DNA from: a virus
IMG/VR virus record: IMGVR_UViG_3300025687_000013
Direction: 5' to 3' (one strand)
DNA length: 40,000 nucleotides
A program made the position numbers and the translations under genes. Under the pieces are notes generated by a model. That model was not told the origin of the DNA. It made no database searches and worked only from the letters and a program-made list of their open reading frames with translations. How positions within the stretch are numbered: the stretch's first letter is position 1; each line of letters begins with the position of its first letter. Positions 7,028 to 29,279 of this stretch are shown piece by piece.

Positions 7028-7840
7028 GTGCAACGCTACAAATTAAAGCTCGGCCTGGAGAATGATAGCATCAAACTCCAAGGCATCGGCTCTCAAATCA
7101 GGGCTGCCGCGACATTGATGCAGAAAGCATCTGTTCGAGGAGACGAGGTGGTTCCAGAGATGGTAGTAAATGGCCAGGACGTTTTCCCACTCATCTTTAA
7201 CAGGAAATCAAAGCCCACTTCAGACATGGAGGTTTGTCCATGTGAAAGCCTGAGTTGGTGTCCACTCGATGAGCCAGCACACGCAGGCGCAGCCATGAAT
7301 CATTTCTCATGGTCAGATCAATGGAAGAAAAGGTGCGAAGAAAAGCTCCAAAGCGTAGGCAACCCTACCGTTGTATTATCACTGAGAGAGACTGACAAGA
7401 TAGATGGCGGGGAGATGGTGTTACCCACAGTTGTTTACCAGAATCTAATTAACACATCAGAGGAACCAGTCCTAGTCCTGGCTGATTCTAACTGGTCCCT
7501 GCCAGACCTGGAAACATTACCAACTTGCAGGACCCTAGAGCGAACGATGAGCCACAGCCTGTTCCCCCTTCATCGAACAAGGCTCCTTGATCGAGGCATT
7601 ACTTCTAAAGCAGAGCTGTTAAATCACACCCTGGAAATGTTTGAAGACATTTACATTTTGGGCACAGCAAAAACAGTATTCTACCCGGTGTGGCACGGAG
7701 TGTTATCGGCTGGAATTTTGCTCGCTAAAAACCGTCCAAACCTGGTTTGCCTCCAAGACTTCCTAACCCCAAGGGAGAAGCAGTTTGTGAACTACTACTG
7801 CAAACGGGAAACCCACTTCTGGAACTTCTTAGACAAATGA
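7028..7840 (+). CDS. hypothetical protein, first gene of the cargo cassette
   Basis: 270-aa ORF with a GTG start. Its stop overlaps the ATG of the radical-SAM gene (ATGA), suggesting translational coupling. No family recognised by eye. Confidence 0.55.
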   Translation: MQRYKLKLGLENDSIKLQGIGSQIRAAATLMQKASVRGDEVVPEMVVNGQDVFPLIFNRKSKPTSDMEVCPCESLSWCPLDEPAHAGAAMNHFSWSDQWKKRCEEKLQSVGNPTVVLSLRETDKIDGGEMVLPTVVYQNLINTSEEPVLVLADSNWSLPDLETLPTCRTLERTMSHSLFPLHRTRLLDRGITSKAELLNHTLEMFEDIYILGTAKTVFYPVWHGVLSAGILLAKNRPNLVCLQDFLTPREKQFVNYYCKRETHFWNFLDK

Positions 7841-9030
7841 TAATTCACTCACAACACCTCGACGTCTCTTATGAGGCACAACCTAACTGCAAGACCATTC
7901 AGATAACGGTTGGTGAATGGTCAGAGAAATATGCTGCCCTTCACGGTGGTATCAGAATGATTTGTGCGACCCTGCCGCATGACCTGGTTCACAGGGACCT
8001 CTCGGTAAAAGTCGAATGCGACGGCAACATGGAGCTTGGGCAGGTCGTGAGCAGGAGTGCTAGGCATGAACCTCTAGGCCTGCATGAACACACAGAAGCT
8101 CTGAATGAGTGCGAGCAGAGAGCCATAGCAATGCCTGTCAGCCTTCAGTGGTTTGCTACTTGGAGGTGTAATTACAAGTGCGCCTACTGCTGGCAGGAGA
8201 CAGTGAGAGACAGTTACAGGAAGGACAAGCCAGCCAAAAGGTCGCCTGTAGAATGGGCTAGGGCCCTGCTATCATTACAACCTAACGAGGTCTACATCAG
8301 TGGCGGCGAGCCTACGACTCTCCCCAACTTCACCAAGATCGTTCAGGCAGTTGGCCTGGTTGTCCCCGTCAACATCACAAGCAATCTCGGTAACTCGTTT
8401 GACATCGATGCCTGGGAGAAGGAAGTCAGCCCAGATGCGATTGACTGTATTACTTTCAGTTTTCACCCAACTCAACAGTCGTTCGATGAATACTCAAGGA
8501 AGCTACGTCATTTTGTCAGTGTTTACGGTGGGAGCAAGACCGGGTCGGAGTTAGTCATGCACCCTGGGCAAACACAATACGAACAGCCATTGAGAGACTT
8601 AGACTCTGAGCTTGGGCTAAGGACGCTGAACATCGATGTGTTCCATCAACAGCCAACCATCTACCCAGCCGCACCAGGACAATGCGTGAACAAGAGGCCT
8701 GCAAGCAACCCTGCGTTGGCAAGTAAACCAAGACATGCCCCAGGCGACACAAGCCCACATTACTGTGCTGCTGGAATGACTCGCCTGAACATTGACCCGG
8801 TTGGTGATGCATACACCTGCATGTCAGCCATTGATCGAAGCAAGATGTTTGGAAAGCACACCCTCCCTCACTACTCACCAGTGGGTAATATATTCGACGA
8901 AGGGTTCAGAATGCAGCAGAAGCCTGTGCTGTGCTGGGAGACTTTTCGGTGTTCTGGCTGCGATGTCGCTAAAGTTAAAGGCTCATGGGTTGAACACCCA
9001 CACCCTTACGAACTTCCTTTGCCACAGTAA
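7837..9030 (+). CDS. radical SAM enzyme with SPASM/twitch-like C-terminal Cys-rich domain and a ~100-aa N-terminal extension
   Basis: WRCNYKCAYCWQ is a CxxxCxxC cluster motif. VYISGGEPT is the GGE SAM-binding motif. The C-terminus has YCAAGMTRLNIDPVGDAYTC and LCWETFRCSGCD. ATG 7837 is in frame with the longer ORF-track ORF (7747) and forms ATGA with the upstream stop. Confidence 0.85.
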   Translation: MIIHSQHLDVSYEAQPNCKTIQITVGEWSEKYAALHGGIRMICATLPHDLVHRDLSVKVECDGNMELGQVVSRSARHEPLGLHEHTEALNECEQRAIAMPVSLQWFATWRCNYKCAYCWQETVRDSYRKDKPAKRSPVEWARALLSLQPNEVYISGGEPTTLPNFTKIVQAVGLVVPVNITSNLGNSFDIDAWEKEVSPDAIDCITFSFHPTQQSFDEYSRKLRHFVSVYGGSKTGSELVMHPGQTQYEQPLRDLDSELGLRTLNIDVFHQQPTIYPAAPGQCVNKRPASNPALASKPRHAPGDTSPHYCAAGMTRLNIDPVGDAYTCMSAIDRSKMFGKHTLPHYSPVGNIFDEGFRMQQKPVLCWETFRCSGCDVAKVKGSWVEHPHPYELPLPQ

Positions 9031-9036
9031 AATCTC

Positions 9037-9603
9037 ATGAGACACAAAGTATTATTGGTGGGTAGTGGCCCATACATCAGGGAATGGTGGGCTTTGCACA
9101 AAGACAAAATTGGAGAAGTGAGCTGCATGAACACTGCCATTGAGGTGGTGGGTGCCAGACATCACAGATGGTATCTGAGCAGTGACTTCATGCACAACAG
9201 GCAGTGGACCTTCCAGGGTATGCGGGAGAGAATTGGAGAACACATTCTGGGCTTGAGAATCGTCGCCAGCTTCCTGTCTACCCCTCATTGGTATAACTGC
9301 CCCTATGACGGAACCATGTTGCTCAACTCCATCTACGACATACTCAACAGGGCCACAGTTGGAGAGACTCCGGTGGAGCTGAACCTGATTGGGTGTGACC
9401 TCGACTACAGTCAGCCCAAGACACATTTCTACGAGGGCGGGACTCCTGACCCCAAGAGAATACCAGACGATGTGCTGCTAGGGCACATGCACAAGGCGAT
9501 GAAAGACTTCTCGCCCATGCACAAGATCGTCAACCTGGGGCCCCAGCCATCGTTCCTTCCGTTTGAACCAGGAGACCCTGAACTGTCATGGAAACATACC
9601 TAG
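9037..9603 (+). CDS. Rossmann-like protein, possibly DUF115/MptE-like (Maf / sialyltransferase-like) glycosyl- or nucleotidyl-sugar transferase
   Basis: N-terminal KVLLVGSGPYI glycine motif and a later NLIGCDLDY resemble DUF115-family proteins. The assignment is weak. The CDS itself is well supported by its packing in the operon. Confidence 0.45.
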   Translation: MRHKVLLVGSGPYIREWWALHKDKIGEVSCMNTAIEVVGARHHRWYLSSDFMHNRQWTFQGMRERIGEHILGLRIVASFLSTPHWYNCPYDGTMLLNSIYDILNRATVGETPVELNLIGCDLDYSQPKTHFYEGGTPDPKRIPDDVLLGHMHKAMKDFSPMHKIVNLGPQPSFLPFEPGDPELSWKHT

Positions 9604-10232
9604 TCACATCTGGAACAGTATCTCACGCTCCTATTCGGACCGGTTTCTTTGAGCCATCACTGGCTGAATGTGAGCCAGTTGAGTGGGTTCATTTTGAGAA
9701 AAGGCTACCTCATGACAACACAGGAAACTTCATGCACATAGACTGGAAACATGCTGTGCTGTGGAAAATTAGGAATGCTCTCAAGTTGTGCAGCATGGTC
9801 GATGAAGGCTCGCTGGTTGTCATATCAGACCTCGACATAATCTACAGGCCTGGAGCTTTCAACAGGCTATCGGAAGAGGTTTCAGACGGTGTTTTTGCGA
9901 TGTGCGAGAACGAGCAGATGGAGATAAATGCTGGCTTGATTGCTTCCAAGAATTGCCAGGCATTCAGGTGGTTGCTGACAGAAGTTCTTGAATACATGGT
10001 TCAGCACAGTTGTCACGATCAGAACGCATTGAGGGCTGTCTCCCAGGGTCGGGTAAAGGTCTTGCCAGTTGAGTATAACAACACAAAGACCGAGAACTTG
10101 ATCGAAAGGGGAAAGGCTTTGTGCTTTCATGCAATCTGCACCATGGCAGACGAAAAACAGGGAAGTGTCTCTAAGAAATTAGCCATGCTCCAACGGTGGC
10201 TTGACAGGTGTCAGTCACCTATGGCAACTTAG
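9588..10232 (+). CDS. GT-A-type nucleotide-diphospho-sugar transferase-like protein
   Basis: LVVISDLDIIYRPG is DxD-like, followed by EINAGLIASKNCQAFRWL and HDQNALRAV. The order and spacing match the nucleotide-diphospho-sugar transferase family. Confidence 0.6.
   Translation: METYLVTSGTVSHAPIRTGFFEPSLAECEPVEWVHFEKRLPHDNTGNFMHIDWKHAVLWKIRNALKLCSMVDEGSLVVISDLDIIYRPGAFNRLSEEVSDGVFAMCENEQMEINAGLIASKNCQAFRWLLTEVLEYMVQHSCHDQNALRAVSQGRVKVLPVEYNNTKTENLIERGKALCFHAICTMADEKQGSVSKKLAMLQRWLDRCQSPMAT
10207..10219 (-). promoter_or_regulatory. 13-mer motif copy (minus-strand sense), exact
   Basis: The plus strand reads ttgacaGGTGTCAGTCACC, inside the last 26 nt of the cassette's final ORF. It is oriented against cassette transcription. 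Confidence 0.6.
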
Positions 10233-10331
10233 TTGGGCCTGGCCCCAGAGACACGTTGTCCCTGGGACTACCGGGTAATTTAGTTGTGGTTAGGGAACTA
10301 TAAGCGGTTACCTGCTAGACATACGGAGAAG

Positions 10332-10373
10332 CCCTCTCACCAGCGGTTGGATACTCAGGTGGGAGGGTTTTTT
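10332..10373 (+). terminator. Rho-independent terminator at the convergence point of the plus-strand cassette and the minus-strand late operon
   Basis: CCCTCTCACC (10332-41) pairs with GGTGGGAGGG (10358-67). This gives a 10-bp stem with one G-U pair and a 16-nt loop, followed by TTTTTT (10368-73). It lies 7 nt from the stop of the 2306-aa minus-strand ORF, so it may act on both strands. Confidence 0.7.
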
Positions 10374-10379
10374 GTGTCC

Positions 10380-13300
10380 TTAATTGTTTCTCAACTTGTC
10401 CAGGTGGTCCTGGGCTTTCTCTACTGAGCTGAAGACAGGGCCCACTCTCCTGCCCTTGTCAGAGTAGACTCTGACCCCTGCTCTGCTAGATGTCTGAACT
10501 GCCCTGAAGCCGTAACCGTCTAGGTAGATGGCTCCACCTCGGTTGTTCAGTTGTCGGGCTGGGGAGAACTTTGTCCCAGGGAAAGTTTGCCTGGCCTTCT
10601 GTCGCAGGTCCTCTGGTATTCTCAGATTATCAGCGTCGTCTGGTGACAGAGATTGAAGTTCTTCTAAGACTGCGTTGAACCTATTTCGTAGGGGTGCATT
10701 GTCCCTGTCCATACCACCATCATCGCGTCTCTTATTCCTGCTAGTTTGTCGTCTGTCAGAGCTTCTGGCCCTATCTCCTCTGCCAGCTTTTCGGTTTGCA
10801 GCAGAACGCTCGTTCGCTCTTGCTTCGTCAAGCTGGACCAGGGAGGAGTTTGCCATGTCTGAACGGTCCGATTGTAGATATCTTTGGCGTATTTTTCCTC
10901 GATCATCTGGTGTTCCTTGGTAAGTGAGCTGAACAATGTCTGGCATTTCGCCACCTCTGTTCCAACCCTGAGACTCCCATACCCTCATCATATCAGCAAG
11001 CTGATTGTTTGGTGTCCCCTGCTCTTCTGGGTTAAATTTGACCCGGTTTGTTTCCTTGAAGCCAAACGTCTCGATGGCGTCTACCCTAGCGCCTCTAGGG
11101 TTGTTAGCTGTAGGTATTGCGAATGTCTTAATCTCTGTTGCTCCTTCCTCAATGGCTTTGAGCATGATGGCAGGAAGATCAGCACCCGATGTGCCCGGCT
11201 GGTTATTAATAGGGTTGAGAATCTCAAGCCCAGCGCCATCACCTGTAGCCCTGAGAGCGAAGTAAATGTTGGAACTGCGATCTTGGCCCAGTTGAAACAC
11301 CCGCATCTCCCCAGACTTAACCATGTCCTTGACTTGCTTTTTGGGAAGTGGCTCAAGCATGGGTGATGCAAAGTTCTCTCCGATGGCTAGTGAGAAGTCT
11401 GCGCTTCCCTTTCCTGTCCTGGGCACCTCATACCAGTCACCAATTGCACCCTGAAGAACTGCCTTGGCTTGGGCTGGGTTCTTTACGTGTTCAAACTTGT
11501 CTACCCCAAACCTGCTGGCAACTTGCTCAGTGATTGAAGTGACAGGCCAGTCCCTGTCCAGGGTGTAGTAACTGTCTTTGCCTCGGCGCTTATAGTGGTC
11601 TGGGAACAGTTTCTCTGCTGAAATAGGTTTCTCCAGGACACCAACCAACTTGCCCCTCACTGCAAAGTCGTATGACCTGTGGCTTGGAATTCCATTCTCG
11701 CCTAGCTTGACGACGTCGCCTCTAGGGTCGAGCTTCAGCACCAGTAACGCCTGCCCATGAGGCTGCCCCCTAAACTCTGGCTGAATGGTTGCGTCTAGTA
11801 TTCGAGACACTCTAGGGAAGCCTGCCTCAACAAACTTGGCCTGATCAATTCTCTCAGCAAACATAGCCCTCTTTTCAAAGGGCAGGCTGTTTAGGTAAGC
11901 GAGCAACTTGTCTGGGTTCTCCAGCCCTGGGAAGTCGGGGAAAACCAGGGTCTTGCCTTTGCCTTTCCCTGCTGACTTCTCCCAATTTGAAAACTCACTA
12001 TTCAGGCTCTTCAGGTTCTCCTCAGATATTCTGCCTCCCTTGATGTATGCCACAACGGTTTGGCTGATAGCGTCAGAGACATCAGTGTTTGATTTGTGAG
12101 ACTGAGGAGTCATGGAGACCACAACACCGTAGACCCCGTCTTGAGCCATCTTTGACTTGATCTTGCTGACACCAGGGCCCTTGTTGGCCCAGGCGAGGCC
12201 TGCTTTCTGAATGCCCTTGAGAAGTGGGAAGTATGGTCCACCCTTTAATTCGATAGGGACAAGGATGTCAGAGCTGTCGATGCCACTGTAAACGTCTCCT
12301 GCCGCCGTGAGGTCTGCCTTGATTGGGAATAGCTTCATTCCAACCAGGTCTTTGCCTGTAAGCTTCTTGACCTTCTTAGAGTCCACCAGTTTGCTGTAAG
12401 TCTCAGACACAGTCCTGGCTGGTGAATACCTGGGAACACCCTGTGCAGAGACCTTCGAGTTAACGTCCTCGTTGAGTGCCACGTAATTGGCCTGTAAGCC
12501 GTCTCTGAGGGTCTTTTGCTCAACCTGTAACGGTCTACCCTTGGAGTCCTTCGTCTGCTTCCAGAGCTTTAATCTAGGAAGCATTTCATCGTAGAACCCT
12601 CTCATGCCATTACCACCCAGACGGAGGTCGTCTCCTTCCAGGAGGGCAGACCTCATTCCGTTTTGCTCAAGGTCACCCTCCATACTGTCGAGGGCCCTCT
12701 TAGTGAGTTCCTTTCCGATGTAATCAGGAAGCTTGTCCTTGGTGATGCCAGTTTCAACTGTCTTGAAGACGTCCTCATCTGGGACCCTGGCCATCAGCTC
12801 GTAAGTGCCGTCGTCGTATTCAATAACATCTAACCCAGAGACTTTGTCACCGAGGTTATACCTGGCGTTCTGGGTTTCACCGGTTGTCCAAGCGATAGCA
12901 TCGTAGCCCTCATCAGCAGCAAGCTTGAGCATTCGCTTCATCGAGAACTCAGGCCAGGACTTCTTGAAGGGGGCGTTGGGGACTCCTTTTAGTTCATCAA
13001 ACTTTATGCGCCTCAACATGTTTCGCCTTTGCCTCATTTCTGTAGTCATTGGCTTGTATTGGTTTTGCATGAAAAACCGCAAGTCTTCGTGAGCTTTAGC
13101 TTTCATTGCATCAGGGGCATTGTCGTGAAACATTTGCTCCTCAATCTTCTGTAATCGCAGTTTTAAAACCTGAAGATCGTTTACCTGCTCAAGAACATCA
13201 AGTTCCCTTGCTTCTTCTTGAGTCAGCCTCCTAGTTCCATACCCCTTGCCTCTTCCTGCTTGATGCCAATCAGACTGAATTTCCTCCAGGAACAGAATCT

Positions 13301-16300
13301 TCTCACCGTCAGAGCCTATTCGGTCGTTGTGGCGAACGTGGGCAACGATGTTTGCTTGGTCGAAGTGACCAGAGGAGTAAGGACCGAAACGAGAGTCACG
13401 AACGGTCAGCAACCTCTCGGTGTATGTCCCTGGCTCTGCCCCTGGTTCTGTGTATTCAGAGAACTTGCCGCCTCCTCTCTCTTCAATTGGGACAAGCTCT
13501 GGGTAAAATTCTCCAGAGAGTTCCCCCTTAAATGCTTCGTAAAGGGCTTTGTCAGCCTCCTGTAAGCTATTGTATGATTCTTCAAAGACAGGGAACTCTC
13601 TGCTCAAAGTGGAGTAGTCAACTAGCTCAGGCTGGCCGTTCCTTCCTTCTCTTAGAATTGCAAATTCGTTCTCAGGGACATCGTCGAAAACAGTGTTTTT
13701 AAGGTCTTCCCCGCTAAACACTTTAAGTCTATTTTTCTCTATCAGAGCCCCAGCAAACCTAACCCAGTTGTCGTCTATGAACTTGTAGGCTGCGTCGTTG
13801 CTTTCAAAAGTTGGAAGTCCCATGGACTGGGACATGTAGTCTCCGTCAATGTTGGTGATTTCCACAACTGGAACACCTCCTCCGCCCTCCGTCACCTCCA
13901 CCATCTCAATCTGGTTAGCCTTGATGAAGTTCAAGACATCTTCCTTGGTGGTGGTTGGGTTGTCTTTCAGGAAGACGTCCAGGCCAATGTCCTCAAGTTC
14001 CTCCTTCTTGACCCCAGCCTTGTCCATGGCTTTCAGGAACTGTTGAGAGGTGCCCTTCTTCTGCTGCATTCCCTCGATGGCCTCCTGGGCCTTGGAATAC
14101 ATTCCCAGGTTGTCCAGCTCCCGTTGTGGTGCCTCTGGTGCCCTGGTAGGGCTGAACATCTGTTTGGCCTTGAGGTGGTCAAATGGGCCCATGCCAAACG
14201 GTGTCCCGTTGGCACTGGTGTCTCTCAAGGAAGCTATGCGTTCAATGCGTAGGTTCTTGTAGATTCGGTTCCCACTGTTCTTGTCCCAGGCAGAGTAGAG
14301 AGGGTTCTTGACGTAGTTATTGGTCTGAAACAGTGCGTTGATGATATTGTGCTTGTCATCTGTTAGCCCAGTTTTGCCTGAAATGTCGTTACGGTGGTTT
14401 TCCAGATACTTCCTAGCATCCTCCAGGAACGCATCTACGTCGTTGTTCCATGGGAGGAGCTTTGAAGTGTCTCTCCAAGCAGCAACTCGGCCCCTGACAT
14501 AGTTTAGGTCAATTACTCTGACGTTGACATTACCGTTGTTAGTGATGAACCACTCATGGGGGATGTAGTTGTATACCGTCGCAGGAATGTCCCCCTTCTT
14601 GCCGGTTAGAGAGTTGACCCAGCTATCTCCCTGGGCCCTGGTGCCGATGCCGAAATAAAATGAGCGAATGGCTCTACCACTGGCAATGGCTTGGTTGATC
14701 TCATCGATGGTCCCCCTGAAGTTCTCCATCATTGGAGCGTCAGAGTATTTAGACTGAAGAAACTTCCCTCGATACTCTTGCTTGCTTGGGTCAGGTGTCC
14801 CGTCAGGGTTGTATTTCTGCTTGAGGCTGACCTCTGGCATTGTTGCATCTGACACCTCGGTATCTAGCGCCTCCTTGACCTCTTTACGCCTCTGACGAAT
14901 GCGTTTTTGAATGTCCTTCTTGTTCTTGGCCTTCTTCCTACCACCTGACTGGGAGGAGCCTTGAGAGTTGCTAGATGCTTTGTCGTCACCCTGGCTCTTT
15001 GGGGTGTCGTTGACGTCGTCGAAGTATTCTTTGCCAACACCGTCCCAGTTGACCCTGTCGTCAGATGCGTCCTTTTTGACGTTGGTCCGTTCCTCTCTGC
15101 CCTGGGCAAAAGCCTTGTATTGTCGGTTCAGGTCTCTGGCGTATTTCTTGTAGGACTTTGAAAGTTCAGAGTCTAACTTTAGGTTGATACCGAAAATGTT
15201 GTCTGGCTTGCTGGCCTGCTCAGGTGACGACTGCTTAGGTTCCTTCTTGTAGCCTAAGCCATCGAGACCTAGCCCGCCCTTCATGACGTCAATGACACTG
15301 AACGCAGTCCCCTTGGCCTCATTGATAGCCATACCGAGTCCAGTTATCGGGGTTTGACCAAACGGTGCTGCGGCCCTTTGAACCGCAGTCTTGAGTTTGC
15401 CTAGCTTAGAGTTGTTCCTGACGTAGTTGTGGAGACCTTGGTCGGTTGAAACAGACATGAAGTTCTCTGAGAACATCTCTCGAACGACCCAGTCTTGGTC
15501 CCCGTCGTTGAGATACTGACGATCAAGTTCTCTGACTCTGCTTTCAACCTCTTCAGGAGTTGGTGTTCTTCGCTTTTCCGCCTGAAGCATCTGCCCTACG
15601 TATGACCGCTTGATTTCGTTTAAGTCATACTCATTCTTGACCTGGTTAACGACAGTCTCTTTGTCAACCACACCACTGTCCCACATGGCCTCACCTACTT
15701 CGTGAAGCAGGGTGTCGGACAGTTTCGTGCTGTCAGCGTTAAGAATGATCTCTTTGCTTTGAGAGTCGTAGTAGCCTTCTACACCTTTCCCTCTAACGGC
15801 TTTGGCGAACTCGTCGCTAGGCAATAGTTTAATATCAACCCTGCCTCGAAGAACTTCTGAAGCAGTGGCCAGGTCTTCAATGGCCCTCCTGGCCATGCTG
15901 CGTAAATTTCCAGATGGCTCGTCAACGACTTCCAGGTTGGACATCTCAATCAACCTGTTCATTGCGCCCTCGCTGCCCTTATGTCGGCCAACAAAGTCGT
16001 TTATGCTGCCCTGCATCTTTGCTGCATCACGTTGGCCCGTGATGGTGTCTACAGTGTAGCCACCAAGGCCACCCAGGCCGCCTGTAAGGCCTGCTGCAAA
16101 GGCACCAGCCTTGGCGCCCTCGGTTCCTTCTGCAAGGCCCCCCAGGGTTGCTCCAGCCACAGAGCCATAAGCAGCACCCCTGCTAATGTCCTTGGCGAGC
16201 CCTAGCGCAACGTCTCCCTTGAACTGGCTGGCTGCGGATGCTGCCATTCTAACACTCTCAGGCAGGCTCATGTTCTTGGAGGCTCTCTCCAAGGGGCCCA

Positions 16301-17300
16301 TATTTGTCGGCAGCTCTGGCAAATCTTCGATAGACTTGGTGAGAGCTGAACCGGCAGGCCCAATGCGGTCGGCGGCCTCTACACCTCCCTTAATCACTGC
16401 TGTGGGGACGGGTGCTGCACCTAGCCCGAAATACGTGAGTTTGCTGGCATTACGTCCAGCAAGTTCCTGCGCCCAGTCTGGCGTGATCTCGACTATCTTG
16501 TCCTTTATCGAGTCCTTGGTTGATTGCAGGGCTTCTCCCGTTGCAACCATGGCTGCCCCAACCTTCTTGCCCGCAGCCCTCATGGCCTTGGCCTCAAGCT
16601 GTGCTAGTTGCTTGCCGAAGCCCTTTTTGACTAGGCCAGAGGCAGCACCACCAACCACTGTCCCGATGTCAGCAACGTAGCTGGCACCCTCTGCCAGGGC
16701 TGGGTCAACATCAACGTCTCCAGTCTGGTTGTAGCCAAAGAATGCGTCTGGGTCTTCCGAGAGTGCCAGATGATCAATTAGGTCTTCTTGACCAAGGCGA
16801 GCTTTCTCTCGCATAGCTTCCAGCTTCCTGATCTCTCTCCAGCCCCTGAAGCGTTCTCTTGTCAGGGCTTCGTCCCTGGTAAATCTGTCCTTGGCTTTCT
16901 GGGTAAGAATGCCCAAGTCGGCTGTGCCTCTCAGGACGCCCTCTCCCAGGGAGTTGACTATTCTTTGGAATTCTCCTTCAGCCAGGTTGGCAGCAAATGC
17001 TCGGCCACCGTCGTAGAGTTCCTTGAACATGGTCTTGCCAACCTGAATGGCATCGTCCATTCCAAAGCTCTGCTTCTCCTGGGTCTCTAGCCACTCCTTC
17101 CACTGCTCATAGGCCTGGTCAGTGTCACCAGGGACAAACGTCAGGTCATCGAGCCTGGAGGCTGAGTCATCAAACTCTATTGATGTTGCGACATTGTCCT
17201 GTGATTGAGCAGTTGGCTCATCATCAAACACCAGACTGGTTGCTACCCCTGTTGAAACTTCAGGTTCATCGTCAAATTGTAAGCCTGTCGCAATTGCCAT
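10380..17300 (-). CDS. giant (2306 aa) multidomain virion-associated / polyvalent-type protein, last gene of the late operon
   Basis: Uninterrupted 6.9-kb ORF. Its Gly/Ala-rich N-terminal third resembles internal/ejection proteins. Central blocks HFDQANIVAHVRHNDRIGSDGEKILFLEEIQSDWHQAG and APFKKSWPEFSMKRMLKLAADEGYDAIAWTTGETQNARY resemble domains I recall from large polyvalent proteins of phages and conjugative elements. There is a GNAT-like block near the C-terminus. Confidence 0.6.
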   Translation of the reverse strand: MAIATGLQFDDEPEVSTGVATSLVFDDEPTAQSQDNVATSIEFDDSASRLDDLTFVPGDTDQAYEQWKEWLETQEKQSFGMDDAIQVGKTMFKELYDGGRAFAANLAEGEFQRIVNSLGEGVLRGTADLGILTQKAKDRFTRDEALTRERFRGWREIRKLEAMREKARLGQEDLIDHLALSEDPDAFFGYNQTGDVDVDPALAEGASYVADIGTVVGGAASGLVKKGFGKQLAQLEAKAMRAAGKKVGAAMVATGEALQSTKDSIKDKIVEITPDWAQELAGRNASKLTYFGLGAAPVPTAVIKGGVEAADRIGPAGSALTKSIEDLPELPTNMGPLERASKNMSLPESVRMAASAASQFKGDVALGLAKDISRGAAYGSVAGATLGGLAEGTEGAKAGAFAAGLTGGLGGLGGYTVDTITGQRDAAKMQGSINDFVGRHKGSEGAMNRLIEMSNLEVVDEPSGNLRSMARRAIEDLATASEVLRGRVDIKLLPSDEFAKAVRGKGVEGYYDSQSKEIILNADSTKLSDTLLHEVGEAMWDSGVVDKETVVNQVKNEYDLNEIKRSYVGQMLQAEKRRTPTPEEVESRVRELDRQYLNDGDQDWVVREMFSENFMSVSTDQGLHNYVRNNSKLGKLKTAVQRAAAPFGQTPITGLGMAINEAKGTAFSVIDVMKGGLGLDGLGYKKEPKQSSPEQASKPDNIFGINLKLDSELSKSYKKYARDLNRQYKAFAQGREERTNVKKDASDDRVNWDGVGKEYFDDVNDTPKSQGDDKASSNSQGSSQSGGRKKAKNKKDIQKRIRQRRKEVKEALDTEVSDATMPEVSLKQKYNPDGTPDPSKQEYRGKFLQSKYSDAPMMENFRGTIDEINQAIASGRAIRSFYFGIGTRAQGDSWVNSLTGKKGDIPATVYNYIPHEWFITNNGNVNVRVIDLNYVRGRVAAWRDTSKLLPWNNDVDAFLEDARKYLENHRNDISGKTGLTDDKHNIINALFQTNNYVKNPLYSAWDKNSGNRIYKNLRIERIASLRDTSANGTPFGMGPFDHLKAKQMFSPTRAPEAPQRELDNLGMYSKAQEAIEGMQQKKGTSQQFLKAMDKAGVKKEELEDIGLDVFLKDNPTTTKEDVLNFIKANQIEMVEVTEGGGGVPVVEITNIDGDYMSQSMGLPTFESNDAAYKFIDDNWVRFAGALIEKNRLKVFSGEDLKNTVFDDVPENEFAILREGRNGQPELVDYSTLSREFPVFEESYNSLQEADKALYEAFKGELSGEFYPELVPIEERGGGKFSEYTEPGAEPGTYTERLLTVRDSRFGPYSSGHFDQANIVAHVRHNDRIGSDGEKILFLEEIQSDWHQAGRGKGYGTRRLTQEEARELDVLEQVNDLQVLKLRLQKIEEQMFHDNAPDAMKAKAHEDLRFFMQNQYKPMTTEMRQRRNMLRRIKFDELKGVPNAPFKKSWPEFSMKRMLKLAADEGYDAIAWTTGETQNARYNLGDKVSGLDVIEYDDGTYELMARVPDEDVFKTVETGITKDKLPDYIGKELTKRALDSMEGDLEQNGMRSALLEGDDLRLGGNGMRGFYDEMLPRLKLWKQTKDSKGRPLQVEQKTLRDGLQANYVALNEDVNSKVSAQGVPRYSPARTVSETYSKLVDSKKVKKLTGKDLVGMKLFPIKADLTAAGDVYSGIDSSDILVPIELKGGPYFPLLKGIQKAGLAWANKGPGVSKIKSKMAQDGVYGVVVSMTPQSHKSNTDVSDAISQTVVAYIKGGRISEENLKSLNSEFSNWEKSAGKGKGKTLVFPDFPGLENPDKLLAYLNSLPFEKRAMFAERIDQAKFVEAGFPRVSRILDATIQPEFRGQPHGQALLVLKLDPRGDVVKLGENGIPSHRSYDFAVRGKLVGVLEKPISAEKLFPDHYKRRGKDSYYTLDRDWPVTSITEQVASRFGVDKFEHVKNPAQAKAVLQGAIGDWYEVPRTGKGSADFSLAIGENFASPMLEPLPKKQVKDMVKSGEMRVFQLGQDRSSNIYFALRATGDGAGLEILNPINNQPGTSGADLPAIMLKAIEEGATEIKTFAIPTANNPRGARVDAIETFGFKETNRVKFNPEEQGTPNNQLADMMRVWESQGWNRGGEMPDIVQLTYQGTPDDRGKIRQRYLQSDRSDMANSSLVQLDEARANERSAANRKAGRGDRARSSDRRQTSRNKRRDDGGMDRDNAPLRNRFNAVLEELQSLSPDDADNLRIPEDLRQKARQTFPGTKFSPARQLNNRGGAIYLDGYGFRAVQTSSRAGVRVYSDKGRRVGPVFSSVEKAQDHLDKLRNN

Positions 17301-17312
17301 GAGCTTTATTCC

Positions 17313-18623
17313 TTACCTGCCTGTTGCTGACAGAAAGCCACTGCCTTCCATGTAGTAGACTTTTTCTCCCTCCATAACTTTCCCTCGCTTGACTGCGTTT
17401 TGCAGGTCCTCCTTAGAGTCGAACACCTGATACATAGTAGGGTTAAACTCACTTGAGACGTAGAGGGTTGGGTCAATACCTGGTTCGATTGACTGCTGTC
17501 TTTCGATGGTTGATTGACGGTATTCATTTGCGGTCTTCAACCTGCCCTGCAAAGCTGTCCTGGATGTTTCCAGAATGTTTTTGCGGACCTGTGGCGTGAG
17601 CTTACCTTTGCCAACTGCATCGTTAAGGGTGCTGACAATACTATCAAGGAACCCTCCGGTTCGTTGTGCTTGTTGCTGCTCTCCTTCTCTTACCACCGAA
17701 TTTGGGTCGAGTGACTTCATGAAAGCAAACACTGTAGCCAGGCCTTGGGCACCTGTTGACTCTGGCCTGAGAATAATGTCCTGGAGCTGGAGGAATTGAG
17801 CCTCTGACTTGATGTAGTCATCAATGGGCGCAGCCTTGATGTATGAGTTGTAGACTGAGTCAATTCTGGTTTTCTGTTCGTTGCTCAGTTGACCAACCTC
17901 TGCTGCTGCCTGCTGCCTTTTCAAGTTGAGGTTACCAATCAGGGCAGTCTTGTAGTCTTTGTCTATTCCTGCTGACTCCCTGGAGACATCAAGCTTGTCC
18001 TGGGCTAACCTGGCATCAGTGATTTTCTCTGCGGTTGCTAGGGACGCCTGTGGGTCAACGTCAATGCCAAGGGCGTTGCTGTAAATCTGCTGCTGCTGTT
18101 GGTCTTGGCGTCTGTTGTAATCGCCTGTGATAAACTGGGAAGCACCAGCAGGCATAACACCACCCTCTCTTTGGACCTGGCTCAGTGACTGACTCGGTGT
18201 CATGCCCTGGCTCATTCCGAACATGAACTTGTCGGAGGCAATACCTTGGTCAATGCCCCTTTGGGCAGTCTGGTTCTGTAACTCAGCCTGCTTAATTCTC
18301 GCGTCATACAACTGAAGAGACTTTTTAAGCAGCAGGTTCTCAGACATGCCTTCCAGTTCTTTCAGGCCCATGTCGTCCAGCCTGGTTTCAAACATCTTAG
18401 TGAACTGCTTTTCTTGCGGGGTTCCTTTGATGTTGTCTGGCATGAATTCATCAGCAAACGGTGCAAGCTTGGCTCTCAGCTTTCTGCTTTCACCTGCTGA
18501 TCTGAAAGCCTGGCCTATGCCTTCGCCAAACTTCTCAATGCCCCTGGCCAGGTTCTGACCTGATTGACTCACAGCCATTGGCTGCACCATCCCCTGCCCT
18601 GAATAACTTTGCTTTGAAAACAT
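17313..18623 (-). CDS. internal virion / ejection protein candidate
   Basis: 436-aa Q/A-rich, coiled-coil-like ORF between tail genes and the giant protein. No enzymatic motif seen. Confidence 0.4.
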   Translation of the reverse strand: MFSKQSYSGQGMVQPMAVSQSGQNLARGIEKFGEGIGQAFRSAGESRKLRAKLAPFADEFMPDNIKGTPQEKQFTKMFETRLDDMGLKELEGMSENLLLKKSLQLYDARIKQAELQNQTAQRGIDQGIASDKFMFGMSQGMTPSQSLSQVQREGGVMPAGASQFITGDYNRRQDQQQQQIYSNALGIDVDPQASLATAEKITDARLAQDKLDVSRESAGIDKDYKTALIGNLNLKRQQAAAEVGQLSNEQKTRIDSVYNSYIKAAPIDDYIKSEAQFLQLQDIILRPESTGAQGLATVFAFMKSLDPNSVVREGEQQQAQRTGGFLDSIVSTLNDAVGKGKLTPQVRKNILETSRTALQGRLKTANEYRQSTIERQQSIEPGIDPTLYVSSEFNPTMYQVFDSKEDLQNAVKRGKVMEGEKVYYMEGSGFLSATGR

Positions 18624-18632
18624 AATCTCTCT

Positions 18633-19496
18633 TTATTTTCCGAAGAAGCCAGTTCCACCCTCTGCCATTCCCCCGAATATGCTTCCTGCTGCACCTATGC
18701 CTGCGCCGATAAGGGCAGACCTATTGTTTGCGCTTTGAATGGCAGCGTTGTTAGCCGCATTCATGTTGGAAGCATGAACACTCCCCAGGTAGGCACTCTC
18801 TGGGTTGAAGAGTTGACCAGGGTTAAAACTCTGGCCCTGACCGGCAATCATTGCTCCTTGGTTCACGTTCACCCCAGGACGCCCCAGGATGGCCATGAAC
18901 GGGTCTTGAGCCGTGGCTGCGTTCATGCCAGCAATCTGCTGTGCAAAGGCCTGACGTCGCCTCTGAAGCTGTTCTGCTTGCAAGCCTTTAACCAGTGCTT
19001 CCTGACCTACATCGACTGCACCAAAACCCATTCCTCTGGCTGCCTGGGCGGACCTGACTTGCTGCTCCATTTCTCTGGCTAGATCGGGTGGCAGGCTTGC
19101 GCCAGCTTGGAGGTCAGACATGGCCTGGCGGTTTAGCTCGCTCATCAGTGCGGCCTGTTCTGGGTTGGCTGCCTTGAATGCTTCAGTGGCCCTGACACCG
19201 AGTTCCTCAACGTCTCTAATGTCTCCCTCTCGACCAACCCGTCTGCCAGCAACCTCGGCTGCATTAAGCCTTGGAAGAACGTCCGTCTCGTAGAGGTCAA
19301 GCAAGCCTGGTTGACCGTCTTTGCCTGTCAGAACTTCTCGGAGAACTTGCAGGTCCAGTTGTGCGTAGGCTGGGCGGCCAAACTCGTCGCTAGACTCAAG
19401 CTCAAATAGCTGTGGCGCTACCTCGGCCTGTGCTGCTGTGTTGTCGATGAGTTCTTGCGCTCCATCACGCTTCTCGTATTTAACCTTTGTTCCCAT
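18633..19496 (-). CDS. internal virion protein candidate (Gly-rich C-terminus)
   Basis: 287 aa. It is A/Q-rich and ends in LIGAGIGAAGSIFGGMAEGGTGFFGK, which looks membrane-interacting. Its position matches podovirus internal proteins. Confidence 0.4.
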   Translation of the reverse strand: MGTKVKYEKRDGAQELIDNTAAQAEVAPQLFELESSDEFGRPAYAQLDLQVLREVLTGKDGQPGLLDLYETDVLPRLNAAEVAGRRVGREGDIRDVEELGVRATEAFKAANPEQAALMSELNRQAMSDLQAGASLPPDLAREMEQQVRSAQAARGMGFGAVDVGQEALVKGLQAEQLQRRRQAFAQQIAGMNAATAQDPFMAILGRPGVNVNQGAMIAGQGQSFNPGQLFNPESAYLGSVHASNMNAANNAAIQSANNRSALIGAGIGAAGSIFGGMAEGGTGFFGK

Positions 19497-19830
19497 TGCT
19501 TGTCTTTCGTCGAAAGTAGTGCCAGTCGTATATTTTTAGGGTGTCCCCAAAGAGCCTGTGCCAGGCTACGTATTTAAGTTTGTAGGGTGCTAGTTCTTGG
19601 AACCGTCTGATCTTGTTCCTTCCCGATGCGTAGAACACAAACCAGCAATCTGGTTTCTTGTGCTTAAAGTTAAAGTCATCGAACTTGTCTGCATGTTTCT
19701 TCTCTATAGGCCTAGCCATGATGAACGCATCATCACCTGAGTAGACGTAGCCATGAATGAGGTAGTTGCCCAGTTGCTGTTCAAACAGCTTTCCGTATTC
19801 TTTAACCGCATCTGTGATGGGTTTGGGCAT
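19480..19830 (-). CDS. hypothetical protein
   Basis: 116-aa ORF overlapping both neighbours by a few nt. No motif recognised. Confidence 0.5.
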   Translation of the reverse strand: MPKPITDAVKEYGKLFEQQLGNYLIHGYVYSGDDAFIMARPIEKKHADKFDDFNFKHKKPDCWFVFYASGRNKIRRFQELAPYKLKYVAWHRLFGDTLKIYDWHYFRRKTSNGNKG

Positions 19831-20753
19831 CAGGCTAGCTTCAAAACCTTAACGACAGAATAAACCTCGTCGTGACCTGATATGTTTGCAGGTCTGCCTA
19901 GACCGTATGTAGCCCTTGTGCTTGAGCTTCTGAACTTTAACTGAAACGTCTTGGTCCCTGCTATGGTCACAATGCCACTAGCAAAAGTCCATTGAGTCTC
20001 AGTGTTTTTGCTAGAACCCCCAGATGCAGAGGTGCCGTTCACAGCAATGGTGCCGTCAGTGGTGTTTTCAACCCAGCAAATGAATTGCCCGGTGTCTGCG
20101 GCTGGGGCTTTTGCTTCAATCAGGTATGTTCCAGCATCAAGGTCCCAGGTATAAGCAGCAGCATCAAAGTCAGCTAAAATAGATGATGGGTCAGTGCTTT
20201 GATTAAGAACACGAACTTGGTCCAATGTTGAGTCTGTTGCCCCAGCATTAGTGTTGGTTGACTGCTGCTCCCACATAACTGCTGCGCCGCCAAAATAACC
20301 AGTGTCCTTAGCTTCCCACTGAATGTTCCCGCTACCATCAGTAGAGATGTATTTGTTAGCCCCATCAGTTACCAGGAGGCTAATTGGAACGCTGGAAACG
20401 CCAGCTTGGGCAGCCCACTCTGGGTTAGAAGCATCACCATTAGTCTTCAGGAAATAACCGCTGGTCCCTGGGGCTAGAGTAACCAAGTCTCCGTTAGAGT
20501 CGTAGTAAAGAATCTGACCGTGTGTGCCCTGGGCAAGCTTTGTCAGGGCCAGGTTGTGGTCGCTGATCTTGCTGTTGATGTCGATGCCAGAAGCCAGCTT
20601 CTGAGTTGTGATGGCACCATCTGTGATCTCGGAAGAGTCAACGGTTCCCGCCAGGGTGATACCAGGGGTTCCAAGCAGATTAAGCTTCGAGTAGGTGACT
20701 CTCTCACTGGCACTGAATTGATAGCCAGGCTGGACGTTAAATGTGATAGCCAT
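19830..20753 (-). CDS. tail fibre protein
   Basis: The N-terminus has EITDGAITTQKLASGIDINSKISDHNLALTKLAQGTHGQILYYDSNGDLVTLAPGTSGYFLKTNGDASNPEWA. This is the repeated I-T-x-x-KLA motif plus a PxW block common in phage fibre N-termini. Confidence 0.65.
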   Translation of the reverse strand: MAITFNVQPGYQFSASERVTYSKLNLLGTPGITLAGTVDSSEITDGAITTQKLASGIDINSKISDHNLALTKLAQGTHGQILYYDSNGDLVTLAPGTSGYFLKTNGDASNPEWAAQAGVSSVPISLLVTDGANKYISTDGSGNIQWEAKDTGYFGGAAVMWEQQSTNTNAGATDSTLDQVRVLNQSTDPSSILADFDAAAYTWDLDAGTYLIEAKAPAADTGQFICWVENTTDGTIAVNGTSASGGSSKNTETQWTFASGIVTIAGTKTFQLKFRSSSTRATYGLGRPANISGHDEVYSVVKVLKLA

Positions 20754-20754
20754 G

Positions 20755-21336
20755 TTATGTCAGGGTTGAGTCTTGAGCCGCAGGGACATACCACTTGCTC
20801 TCTGTGTCGTGGAGGAAGATGGCGAAGTTGCCTGATGACAGGGTAAACGATGAATCAAACGGGTAGTCTTCCCATGCCGTAGATGTGATGCTTGCATTCA
20901 TGTTGTATGGCAACTTGTTCACGATGATCTTGATGCCAGCAACTCCCACAGTTGGTGTTGGTAGTGCGTATGTCGTTGTGGAGTTGTTGAGAATGCTAAC
21001 AACGTAATTGTTGGTGACTGCGTTAGTCTCAACACTCAACAGGCTGTGCAGGAACGTGACTGGGTCAGTGAGCCTGATGGTTGGGTTGCCTCCTTCACCG
21101 TCAAAGTTAGTCCAACCTAAACCTGTTGATGACAGGAACCTCTTGATGGTTGCACTGCCAGAACCGTCGAGCTGAACAAACCCGGCAGTGCCACTCAGTT
21201 CATCGATGGAGCGAATGTTCCCATCTGCGTAGTTCAGGTGTTCCAGGGAGTCGATGAACTCTGTCCTGGTCACGGTAGTGTTGCCCACAGGGGCATTCAC
21301 TGAGTCTACCGAAAAGTTCTTGGTTGAGTCTGGCAT
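20755..21336 (-). CDS. tail-associated structural protein candidate
   Basis: 193-aa S/T/N-rich ORF between the nozzle-like protein and the fibre gene. Confidence 0.4.
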   Translation of the reverse strand: MPDSTKNFSVDSVNAPVGNTTVTRTEFIDSLEHLNYADGNIRSIDELSGTAGFVQLDGSGSATIKRFLSSTGLGWTNFDGEGGNPTIRLTDPVTFLHSLLSVETNAVTNNYVVSILNNSTTTYALPTPTVGVAGIKIIVNKLPYNMNASITSTAWEDYPFDSSFTLSSGNFAIFLHDTESKWYVPAAQDSTLT

Positions 21337-21337
21337 A

Positions 21338-23560
21338 TCAAAGCATAGCGTGTCGGCCCTCTCGACGTTGACCGTCAGTGGTGCCGGTGGTGATTGAATG
21401 AATTCTGATTCGGCCTTCCAGGCCTTGGAACTTGATCTGGAAGTAGGAGCCCCTTTGGTTCACTCGGAGCTTGTGAGTGTAATACTGGTGCAGGTCTAGG
21501 ACGGTGCCTGTTGAGCCCAGGACGGTTCCTCCTCCTGGTTCTGTTGCATCGAGAATGACTGAGTAGTCTTCCCTGCCCTCTGTCTCATGGTCGTCGTTGA
21601 TGTTGGTGATTGGCCAGTCATCAACTGCGAAAGTCATGTATTTGGTTCTGCTCTGGAACGTGTATGATGTGTCGTCAAGGAGGACAGACTCTTCCTTCAC
21701 GCCATCAGTGATGGCAGTGATTCTGTATTTAGGGTCCCAAGTAGAGATGAACACCTGGGCGTCTTGCAGTCGCCTCCTGTTACCAGAGGCAAAACCGTAA
21801 CCCCTGGTCAGAACCATGAACTGAATCTCACTGTCCCTAACCATGACCTTCTCAGAACAGATGACCGTGATGTATGGGTCATCGGCCTTGATAAGCATCG
21901 GTGTTGAACTCGTGAACCTGACACCACAGTCCAGGGCTTCAACCGTGTCGGTTCCATGGGTCCAACCGCCACTGCTGTAGCCAGCATAGAGGTTGTCTGC
22001 CGCATTATCGCATGGGTCTGCTGTTACATCTCCCATGTTCCAAACACCGTCAGTGTCTGAAGCGCCTGTCCTTGGGTCTTCGACTAGAGGGTTAACACCG
22101 TCTGTCAAGACATCAGCATCACTCTCAATCAGGGTGTTCTGCCTGGTTCCATAGACCTCGGTGCCATTGTTGACCTGAACCATGTTTCCGATGGCAGGCT
22201 GGCCTACCAGGAGGACGTCGCATGAGTAAGCGTTCTGCTCCTGCTTGACCATCTCTGTCTCACCGTATTCGTAGAGACCTACGACCCCAGTGTAATCGAC
22301 AAAAAACAGGCTTTCTGTCCCTTGGAAATCAGCCACAAAGAAATACTTAATCTTGATGGCATCACCCTCGTCGTAGCCTGCCCAGGCCTTGTTGAGAAAA
22401 TCATAGACCAAGACCGCATTGTTCTGCTGAGAGCCATCTAGAGGGACGCTGAGATAGTATCTGTTCTGCCAGTAGGCACCGCAGGCGGTTTCCTTGGCCA
22501 CAGACATGTCTATGCGGTCAATGATGGGTTGTATAGGGGTGCTAACGGGCTCAGAAACGCCCTGTAGCTTGTTTTGTTCAGTCTGCCTAAGTGAGACTAC
22601 TCCACGTTGCGAAAGGAACCACAGGTCGCTTCCTGTGTTGACCACAGACCTTGGCCCAACCAGTCCAAACTCAGAGGTAACCTGATCAAGGGCAGCATTG
22701 GTGCCCCAGTCGCCAACCAGATTGTTGACTGCATAGATGCTGGTCGATTTGAAGACAACGACAGACTGGTCGTTGAACTTAAACAGTCGCTCTATGTTGT
22801 CACTGTCGCCCTGGTTGATTTTGAACGAAGCATACACAGGGTCATACGACGTATAGTCAAGTATGTCTGACACCGCGACATGGTCAGCCTTATAACCCAA
22901 AGCAGGTTTGTGAGGAACGAGGAGGCGGTTTTGGAAAAAGAGGGTAGACTTTGAGTTTGGTATGTTCTCAGTTCCACCAGCCCCGGATGCCTCCGGTGCC
23001 TCGATAAAGCCTTCTTCAAAATTAGATAGGACCAGGTGGGTATCGTCGTGTCCCCTGGAGAGAATGCACTTATCGAAGGCTTGTGTGAACCAATACACAT
23101 CCTCCGTATTAGCGTCTTGGTAGAGTGTTGTTGGAACTGTCAGAGAGACAGAACACCGGACTGGCACTGCTGTGTTGCCAGGACGAAGCCGGTAGATAAC
23201 GATGTTAGTGTTATCGACTGATGAAGCTACTAGAACCCAGTCAACACCGTTAGGGTCGTTCCACACACCTACTCCGTAGACGTCCCCAAAGTTACCCCTG
23301 AGAACACCGTCAAAGTTGATGTCACCCTCGTTCCAGTTGATGGGCCATTCCCAGCTAGACTTAATGTTTGTCCAGCCAACTGGCATGGTGCCCTTTCTGG
23401 GCTCTGCTATGCCGAATCGGAAACGTGCGTTCCTGGCGTCTGATACGTAGCCAGGAGGAAGGAGATGAGGACTGGTCCTCATGTCAACACCGATAAAACC
23501 ATTGTCCCCATCTGTCAGTGGGACGTCGTCGTTGATTGAATAGTTTCGGTGTTGCCTCAT
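21338..23560 (-). CDS. large tail protein, possibly podovirus tail tubular B / nozzle-like
   Basis: 740 aa. The N-terminus reads DMRTSPHLLPPGYVSDARNARFRFGIAEPRKG. Size and position in the tail module fit this call. The assignment is tentative. Confidence 0.4.
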   Translation of the reverse strand: MRQHRNYSINDDVPLTDGDNGFIGVDMRTSPHLLPPGYVSDARNARFRFGIAEPRKGTMPVGWTNIKSSWEWPINWNEGDINFDGVLRGNFGDVYGVGVWNDPNGVDWVLVASSVDNTNIVIYRLRPGNTAVPVRCSVSLTVPTTLYQDANTEDVYWFTQAFDKCILSRGHDDTHLVLSNFEEGFIEAPEASGAGGTENIPNSKSTLFFQNRLLVPHKPALGYKADHVAVSDILDYTSYDPVYASFKINQGDSDNIERLFKFNDQSVVVFKSTSIYAVNNLVGDWGTNAALDQVTSEFGLVGPRSVVNTGSDLWFLSQRGVVSLRQTEQNKLQGVSEPVSTPIQPIIDRIDMSVAKETACGAYWQNRYYLSVPLDGSQQNNAVLVYDFLNKAWAGYDEGDAIKIKYFFVADFQGTESLFFVDYTGVVGLYEYGETEMVKQEQNAYSCDVLLVGQPAIGNMVQVNNGTEVYGTRQNTLIESDADVLTDGVNPLVEDPRTGASDTDGVWNMGDVTADPCDNAADNLYAGYSSGGWTHGTDTVEALDCGVRFTSSTPMLIKADDPYITVICSEKVMVRDSEIQFMVLTRGYGFASGNRRRLQDAQVFISTWDPKYRITAITDGVKEESVLLDDTSYTFQSRTKYMTFAVDDWPITNINDDHETEGREDYSVILDATEPGGGTVLGSTGTVLDLHQYYTHKLRVNQRGSYFQIKFQGLEGRIRIHSITTGTTDGQRREGRHAML

Positions 23561-24585: not shown

Positions 24586-24591
24586 AAATTG

Positions 24592-25059: not shown

Positions 25060-25240
25060 CGTGCTTTTCGCCTTTGATAATTTTGGTCCAGACGACCACA
25101 CACTTACCAAGCATGTAGCCAGCAGTGGCTAGGGCTATGCCAAGCCTGGCCCAGCCTTCCATTCCTTCTGTCCAGGACACTGTCCAACCGATTGCCCCAA
25201 TGCACAGAAACCTGATTGCATCAGTAGCCTCGTTTGCCAC
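25043..25240 (-). CDS. holin candidate (two TM segments, charged C-terminus)
   Basis: 65 aa, with AIRFLCIGAIGWTVSW and WARLGIALATAGYMLGKCVVVW followed by KIIKGEKHDEKSD. GTG start preceded by AAAAAAGGGGGAAAGAAGG. Confidence 0.45.
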   Translation of the reverse strand: MANEATDAIRFLCIGAIGWTVSWTEGMEGWARLGIALATAGYMLGKCVVVWTKIIKGEKHDEKSD

Positions 25241-25273
25241 CCTTCTTTCCCCCTTTTTTAGTTCCCTTGCCCA

Positions 25274-25905: not shown

Positions 25906-25928
25906 ATCTTGTGATTGGTGGTCTGTTG

Positions 25929-27779: not shown

Positions 27780-27781
27780 GC

Positions 27782-29274: not shown

Positions 29275-29279
29275 GGTCG

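Follow-up and report, generated by a model that had tools for sequence, protein, structure and literature searches.

A giant cysteine-free protein with conserved ends and exchanged inner modules in a marine podovirus-like phage: a probable phage-type polyvalent protein

The stretch of viral DNA analysed here in full (the window: 40,000 nucleotides (nt) of IMG/VR record IMGVR_UViG_3300025687_000013, on a contig of 40,018 nt) carries at 10380..17300 a single gene for a giant protein of 2306 amino acids (aa) plus stop, which, like all its features described below, lies on the minus strand. We consider it probable (about 0.7) that its product is a phage-type polyvalent protein, based on the largest member of a podovirus ejection trio, a protein that would be packaged, ejected and composed of modular effectors. 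Phage-type polyvalent proteins were described as multidomain products of late virion genes, for which packaging and injection are predicted (Iyer, Burroughs, Anand, de Souza and Aravind, 2017; PMC5512222). Here the gene lies with the late virion genes of a phage that has a portal-terminase system, the chain combines unrelated domains (a zincin-like domain, a domain termed A3, module B, the first domain of module C, the GNAT-like domain that follows it and the D tail), and modules B and C fall within the network of polyvalent domains (ART-PolyVal, LPD and InPase). The original prediction, made by eye from the letters of the window, had placed here an uninterrupted 6.9 kb open reading frame (ORF) that takes up 17% of the genome and closes the late operon, and this holds: the ORF has an ATG start and an unbroken reading frame, its 6921 nt make up 17.3% of the window, and it is the final gene of the minus-strand late (virion) operon. 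It starts 12 nt past the stop codon of the upstream gene, is preceded by an AAGGA Shine-Dalgarno-like sequence and is convergent with plus-strand genes that end at 10232. About 20 relatives of the lineage, on contigs of about 40 kb from marine metagenomes including TARA Oceans, keep the gene order and are 42-95% identical in the N-terminal half of the protein, while the ratio of non-synonymous to synonymous substitution rates (dN/dS) against one relative is 0.08-0.19 in each shared module, including the last 60 codons. Because of these relatives and this ratio, the giant ORF is taken as a real gene under purifying selection and not a chance ORF.

Local alignments to 44 homologues define four modules, A, B, C and D, of which B and C are common to proteins with polyvalent domains; two segments of the protein (aa 440-1639, by AlphaFold, and aa 1630-2306) were also modelled. 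As a whole the protein finds no match in Pfam, PHROGs, PADLOC, NCBIfam or, by phmmer, the PDB sequences, and among 50,697 deposited phage records only the region of aa ~1308-1625 finds matches, to two hypothetical proteins. Module A (aa 1-1048) is a lineage-specific chassis. Module D is a C-terminal mini-domain of four short strands and a helix (aa 2250-2306, 10383..10553), modelled with a predicted local distance difference test (pLDDT) score of 82-91 and evolving at a dN/dS of 0.18; it is kept at 52-100% identity in nearly all relatives of the lineage, even in those without B and C.

The cargo between these conserved ends has been swapped among otherwise near-identical phages. When relatives are cut at a short junction motif described below, the orders are A-B-C-D (the giant protein itself), A-B-m2-DUF7178-D, A-ART-B-m2-DUF7178-D, A-B-DUF7178-D, and A and D around 821 aa with ASCH. 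The homologue P0008 is 95% identical to the giant protein across A and has a wholly different 821-aa cargo. At the DNA level similarity to a relative ends at aa ~1626, is absent over aa 1627-2242 and returns for the last 194 nt, which are 92.8% identical and form the top block of the DNA comparison. Against the relative L012, aa 1051-1138 and the D tail of the giant gene have a synonymous divergence (dS) of 0.18-0.21 and module A one of 1.0-2.6, and this roughly tenfold difference between modules implies recent recombination within the gene. Swapping of cargo is as expected for an arms-race locus.

Modules B and C, which recur in hundreds of giant phage proteins, connect the giant protein to polyvalent proteins. 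Module B (aa 1054-1624, 12429..14141) is a mobile module with a helical N-subdomain, variable inserts and a conserved alpha/beta core (pLDDT 80-95). Very different giant proteins of 1,500-3,900 aa also contain it, at 25-38% identity, and in them Pfam recognizes ART-PolyVal, InPase, LPD22, LPD37, LPD38, ddrB-ParB and Zeta toxin domains, and most of these families were named for polyvalent proteins (PMC5512222). The named domains always lie outside the stretch aligned to B, and therefore B itself has no Pfam model. Both peptide blocks that the original prediction had associated with polyvalent proteins, HFDQANIVAHVRHNDR...LFLEEIQSDWHQAG (aa 1312-1349) and PFKKSWPEFSMKRMLKLAADEGYDAIAWTTGETQNARY (aa 1444-1481), are present and belong to module B, so that this association is borne out by the fusions of B to polyvalent Pfam domains in distant homologues. 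Residues conserved in B at 90% or more are H1312, R1323, E1340, Q1342, S1343, D1344, P1444, W1449, R1456 and K1530, and the His/Arg/Glu/Gln/Ser/Asp set among them looks enzymatic. Against a library of viral structures the model of aa 440-1639 gives 24 matches at E<=1e-3 (best 2.5e-28), all of them large proteins of uncultured tailed phages and several annotated as ART-PolyVal-like, LPD-containing, GP88 or LT_GEWL. An assignment of B itself to the GNAT family was rejected: GNATs topped the Foldseek list, but hhalign put the probability of a match between B and the GNAT part of C at less than 1%.

Module C (aa 1630-2244) is abundant, since an exhaustive HMMER search returned 614 cluster representatives, of which 127 reached E<=1e-30, mostly aligned over ~590 aa. 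A word-indexed homologue search with aa 1630-2242 had given a lone fragment and missed the query itself, and is uninformative rather than a sign of rarity. The module occurs inside proteins of 2-6 thousand aa and also as proteins of 620-900 aa; its partners in 18 large proteins include ART-PolyVal (8/18), LPD22 (6/18) and Zeta toxin (3/18). B and C occur together in only 10 of 149 module-C proteins and in either order, and are therefore independent mobile modules.

The model of aa 1630-2306 (pLDDT 85.8, predicted template modelling score 0.82) divides module C into three parts. The N-terminal domain (aa 1630-1955, 11436..12413; pLDDT ~90), to which no fold was assigned, has D1663, H1735, N1738, R1811 and Y1877 as invariant residues. 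It is followed by a region with a GNAT-like acyltransferase fold (aa 1956-2130, 10911..11435), found by structure search: the top 50 PDB matches are all GNAT and mostly run across the whole target domain, with probabilities of 0.75-1.00 (mostly >=0.9) and TM-scores normalized by target of 0.22-0.59 (mostly 0.4-0.6). A helical, basic and low-complexity linker (aa 2131-2244, 10569..10910) ends the module. After strand beta4, where GNAT acyltransferases have the acyl-CoA-binding loop Q/RxxGxG/A, the family consensus reads NNExGxKG and the giant protein NNQPGTSG; the residue at the third position of this motif, Q2034, is Gln also in P0002-P0004 and Glu in the 77%-identical P0005, a natural pair of variants.

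That the protein is delivered with the DNA, as originally proposed, is something we infer, with independent backing from its composition. It has no cysteine in 2306 aa, compared with 1.31% on average across the 38 remaining ORFs (P=6e-14), and the trait is general, the 44 homologues having six cysteines in total and the 149 module-C proteins 71 in 251,559 aa. Replication and accessory proteins of the same phage contain 1-5% cysteine. Proteins of known behaviour calibrate the trait. T7 gp15 and gp16 have no cysteine and gp14 has one, with 1.3-2.7% in T7 cytoplasmic enzymes; in N4 the virion RNA polymerase (vRNAP, 3500 aa) and two upstream virion proteins have none, and the cytoplasmic enzymes of T7 and N4 together range from 1.1 to 2.7%. 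We read avoidance of cysteine as a mark of proteins that cross the tail and the oxidizing periplasm in unfolded form, and the total absence of cysteine, as in T7 gp15/gp16 and N4 vRNAP, whose ejection is known from experiment, supports ejection through the tail.

Two further cysteine-free proteins are encoded immediately upstream on the minus strand. One, of 287 aa (18633..19496), has a C-terminal hydrophobic glycine zipper and is a candidate gp14/gp7-like ejection protein; the other, of 436 aa (17313..18623), is Gln-rich, matches phrog_13634 (annotated as unknown function), keeps its synteny in relatives and is a candidate gp15/gp20-like ejection protein. The last three genes of the operon thus fit the pattern of an ejection trio, a fit without backing from homology.

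Each module boundary is marked by a short motif: FSPTR between A and B (aa 1049-1053, 14142..14156), YSPAR between B and C (aa 1625-1629, 12414..12428) and FSPAR between C and D (aa 2245-2249, 10554..10568). The giant protein has exactly three [FY]SP sites, every one at a boundary, and for the fuller pattern [FY]S[PV]x[RK] the three occurrences compare with 0.14 expected from shuffles, none of 2000 shuffles reaching three. Relatives have one site per boundary, up to five; in P0009 and two IMG/VR loci there are five, which also bracket the inserted ART module. Most distant polyvalent proteins are without the motif. The Ser, Pro and Arg codons differ between the three sites, which indicates that the motif is kept at the protein level and rules out an origin from DNA microhomology. 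The junctions are candidate processing sites.

Within module A, three short acidic repeats (SLxFDDEP; aa 1-50, 17151..17300) precede the invariant LDDLTFVPGDTD. Relatives likewise have three copies but of a different motif, namely ELDFIPT in P0002, P0011 and P0015, FRVVPV or FKAVPV in P0009 and P0014, and FEYIDDE in P0020, and LDDLTFVPGDTD follows every type of repeat; P0002 is 90% identical overall to the giant protein yet has another type. Judging from these sequences the copies change in concert, as though they bound a multimeric partner that co-varies, and our guess is that they serve as a docking peptide. The N-terminal chassis (aa 51-440, 15981..17150) is weakly common to P0021, P0043 and P0089 and has a highly conserved helical part (aa 51-240). 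The original prediction had called the N-terminal third Gly/Ala-rich, which is correct for aa ~200-430 (33-35% Gly plus Ala, in a segment with 29 small-xxx-small zipper motifs) but not for the rest of the third. Domain A3 (aa 831-1048, 14157..14810), conserved and globular, is found also in the giant proteins P0021, P0022, P0043, P0049, P0067, P0078 and P0079. Profiles of A1 and A2, run against PDB sequences, yielded nothing beyond matches that were of low complexity or not significant.

Between chassis and A3 lies a zincin-like metallopeptidase domain (aa 461-629, 15414..15920), recognized from invariant residues, from the model (pLDDT 70-86) and from a profile alignment. The segment LHEVGEAMWD (aa 532-541) is invariant across the lineage, as is E608 in a later helix, and the modelled order of a helix, three strands and then the motif-bearing helix fits a zincin core, which consists of an N-terminal helix, a three-stranded sheet and two helices with a Glu ligand downstream. 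The absence of an HExxH motif reported in the original prediction is literally correct, since the protein has HEVGE (aa 533-537) with an altered metal site; in the profile of module A, however, each column of this motif pairs with one of LHEFGHALFDSG from P0022, a distant homologue that has the canonical HEFGH (E=6.8e-28). Because of this alignment the domain appears to descend from a canonical HExxH peptidase, with Glu as the putative second zinc ligand and an uncertain activity. Foldseek found no significant match of the model to a solved zincin structure in the PDB. Polyvalent proteins often contain a zincin-like peptidase that processes them, and a GNAT family neighbours ART domains, in one case in an uncultured Mediterranean phage (PMC5512222).

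These features suggest a sequence of events that begins, as the gene position shows, with late production from the last gene of the virion operon. The protein would then enter the head by way of the ends that the lineage conserves (the N-terminal ~1050 aa and the 57-aa domain at the C terminus) and, to judge from the cysteine-free signature, would be threaded unfolded through the tail channel at infection together with the two upstream cysteine-free proteins. The Gly/Ala-zipper N-terminal part may aid crossing of the envelope, so that B and C would reach the cytoplasm, where [FY]S[PV]x[RK], as the proposed processing site, might be cut by the zincin-derived domain of the protein itself or by another protease to free the modules. 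The cargo would act ahead of any phage gene expression, module C, which has an N-terminal domain of its own, as a GNAT-type acyltransferase or acyl-CoA-binding module and module B as a further enzyme-like module, both possibly modifying host or phage targets and, by analogy with known systems, plausibly blunting host defences. An anti-defence role is plausible on the same analogy. A more elaborate version, which we offer only tentatively, is that of a plug-in chassis with fixed ends for packaging and ejection and room for any number of effectors in series, in which the [FY]SPx[RK] peptides would read 'cut here' to the built-in zincin-derived protease after entry.

Several points weigh against the polyvalent reading. 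Packaging, ejection, cleavage and the activities are all matters that we infer. Both enzyme-like folds have changes at key positions: the second His of the zincin motif is Glu throughout the lineage, and the Glu at the end of beta4 in the GNAT-like region, invariant in the family (14 of 14 other aligned members), is Gln (Q2034) here, so that both folds may be inactive or repurposed. The GNAT matches, although consistent, are marginal by E-value (0.017-0.16), and the 1200-aa model, searched with Foldseek against the PDB, matched nothing below E=0.1, leaving module B without an assigned fold. Our own Pfam scan found nothing but noise at E<=1, and thus none of the curated polyvalent families (ART-PolyVal, LPD1-39); this is a matter of model coverage and not a defining property of such proteins. 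No strong transmembrane segment was predicted in the giant protein (maximum Kyte-Doolittle score 1.24), and searches of PHROGs, Pfam and PDB sequences revealed no homology to the ejection proteins of T7 or P22. Instead of being cleaved, the junction motif could serve as a structural linker or for docking. Finally, no prophage copy of module A was found in 185,579 reference bacterial genomes.

Other explanations were weighed against these data. The protein could belong to the DNA-delivery machinery only, as an oversized ejection protein of the gp16 type with additional domains that penetrate the envelope or translocate DNA and do not manipulate the host. It is indeed the third and largest of three cysteine-free proteins that end the structural operon, as in T7 gp14/15/16 and P22 gp7/20/16, some of its structural relatives have a lytic transglycosylase domain (LT_GEWL), and the altered key residues of the two enzyme-like folds would be in keeping with such a role; the wholesale replacement of the middle between phages 95% identical in the chassis is nevertheless hard to square with a core mechanical function, the same modules adjoin ART, Zeta-toxin, InPase and ParB-like nuclease domains in other proteins, and the Pfam scan found no peptidoglycan hydrolase in the giant protein. 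We regard this alternative as improbable. Slightly less probable still is a protein that is not packaged at all, either a late cytoplasmic multi-enzyme or a toxin of the polymorphic type exported by the lysogen, which adjoins the virion genes by chance. The phage does have an integrase, conserved ends around a variable middle resemble toxin cassettes, and depletion of cysteine is typical also of proteins exported unfolded by bacterial secretion systems. The 12-nt gap, however, couples the gene to the structural operon and synteny is kept, no secretion-system, immunity or signal-peptide features were seen, and the cysteine-free trait is common to the two upstream neighbours and to known ejected proteins.

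A tape measure protein or a tail fibre would account for the large size and the late position in the structural module, and tape measures are ejected too. The models, however, consist of many globular alpha/beta domains, with no long helical rod or beta-fibre, neither Pfam nor PHROGs gives such a match, no tube, sheath or chaperone genes were detected among the genes of the window, the capsid relatives are phages of ~40 kb and mostly of podovirus type, and a separate fibre gene is present at 19830-20753. The original prediction had argued that the protein is no tape measure, and the globular models, the missing family match and the missing tube and chaperone genes rule out both the tape-measure and the fibre readings for all but a very small residue of doubt. 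The polyvalent reading is the one that we retain.

The source phage is an uncultured, podovirus-like temperate marine phage of ~40 kb, of a lineage known solely from marine metagenomes. Besides the trio, the minus-strand operon encodes terminase-like, likely portal, scaffold, major head, tail, glycosyltransferase and tail fibre proteins. The terminase-like gene (35379-37046, minus strand) matches terminases of other phages, and the scaffold protein (31949-32965, minus strand) has no cysteine. Inside the structural operon a group-1 glycosyltransferase gene (23557-24585) is followed by a gene for a 740-aa protein (21338-23560) whose PHROG match is annotated as amidase or virion structural protein, both being kept in relatives, and by one for a cysteine-free protein of 193 aa (20755-21336). 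A plus-strand arm (6005-10232) sits between two minus-strand blocks and comprises the integrase (6005-6958), a radical-SAM protein with 15 cysteines (7747-9030), kept at the same position in relatives, and small ORFs. The window has no tRNA gene. The nearest deposited phage is C75C1 (L006, OQ984151.1), with ~30% identity in terminase and capsid. Its tail fibre gene is directly followed by an ORF of 2769 aa and then by ORFs of 375 and 1343 aa; these three consecutive hypothetical ORFs (38751..7576, across the origin, 7573-8700 and 8707-12738) are all free of cysteine, and none is detectably homologous to the giant protein. The giant proteins of C75C1 have no significant profile similarity to any module of the giant protein described here, and the three ORFs may represent a functionally equivalent yet unrelated set of ejected proteins.

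Polyvalent proteins, a class that sequence analysis predicted in 2017, are regarded as a major weapon in the first strike by phages and plasmids. To our knowledge almost none has been studied experimentally, and we know of no account of how one chain yields many activities. The present locus offers handles on this question in the form of a sharp module map, a testable boundary motif, natural variants that differ in cargo only, and natural variants of key residues in close relatives, such as Glu versus Gln in the GNAT-like region. If the version with the plug-in chassis is correct, [FY]SPx[RK] would represent the first processing code to be defined in polyvalent proteins, and total avoidance of cysteine would be a simple and general signature for predicting injected phage proteins; having held for T7 and N4, it could flag such proteins in any phage genome. 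Two abundant modules are moreover absent from Pfam, namely B, and C with at least 614 cluster representatives.

Compared with known systems, the giant protein resembles the polyvalent proteins in being a late virion product of giant size and many domains in a portal-terminase phage, in its zincin-type and GNAT-like domains, in its extensive mosaicism and in modules that recur in ART-PolyVal, InPase, LPD, ddrB-ParB and Zeta-toxin proteins. It differs in matching none of the Pfam models of that study, with B and C, each taken as a whole, lacking a Pfam model, and in its conserved ends around swapped cargo, its boundary motif and its HExxE peptidase motif. Podoviruses typically have three syntenic ejection proteins of rising size, the largest of which is mosaic (PMC8954989). 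As in T7 gp14/gp15/gp16 and P22 gp7/gp20/gp16, the consecutive proteins of 287, 436 and 2306 aa form a trio of rising size, here cysteine-free, with Gly-rich hydrophobic segments and a mosaic largest member of a kind that can carry an enzymatic add-on. Unlike those trios, this one shows no detectable homology to them, has no transglycosylase, follows the fibre gene instead of preceding it, and ends in a protein of 2306 aa versus 609-1337 aa for gp16-like proteins, with ~1250 extra aa of effector-type modules.

The N4 virion RNA polymerase gp50, which Iyer et al. class as a polyvalent protein with a zincin domain (PMC5512222), is likewise giant (3500 aa), free of cysteine and encoded at the end of a late operon after two cysteine-free virion proteins; gp50 is packaged and injected, as is proposed for the present protein, which has no RNA polymerase domain and an unrelated sequence, and comes from a temperate phage of ~40 kb. 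The Dar proteins of P1 (DarB and DdrB) are comparable in being very large and are packaged in the head and protect the DNA on entry, DdrB being proteolytically processed and having a zincin domain (PMC5512222); the giant protein differs in having no methyltransferase or helicase domains and no detected homology to them, and in belonging to another type of phage. The polymorphic toxins (Rhs and CDI) differ in that the payload here is internal to the conserved ends, present as several modules in series, part of a virion operon and unaccompanied by an immunity gene, and yet they share with it a conserved delivery part, an exchangeable payload and short conserved motifs at the boundary. What the analysis adds is a map of the modules, a putative HExxE domain derived from zincins, a GNAT-like fold, conserved ends that enclose swapped cargo, a motif at the junctions and the cysteine-free signature.

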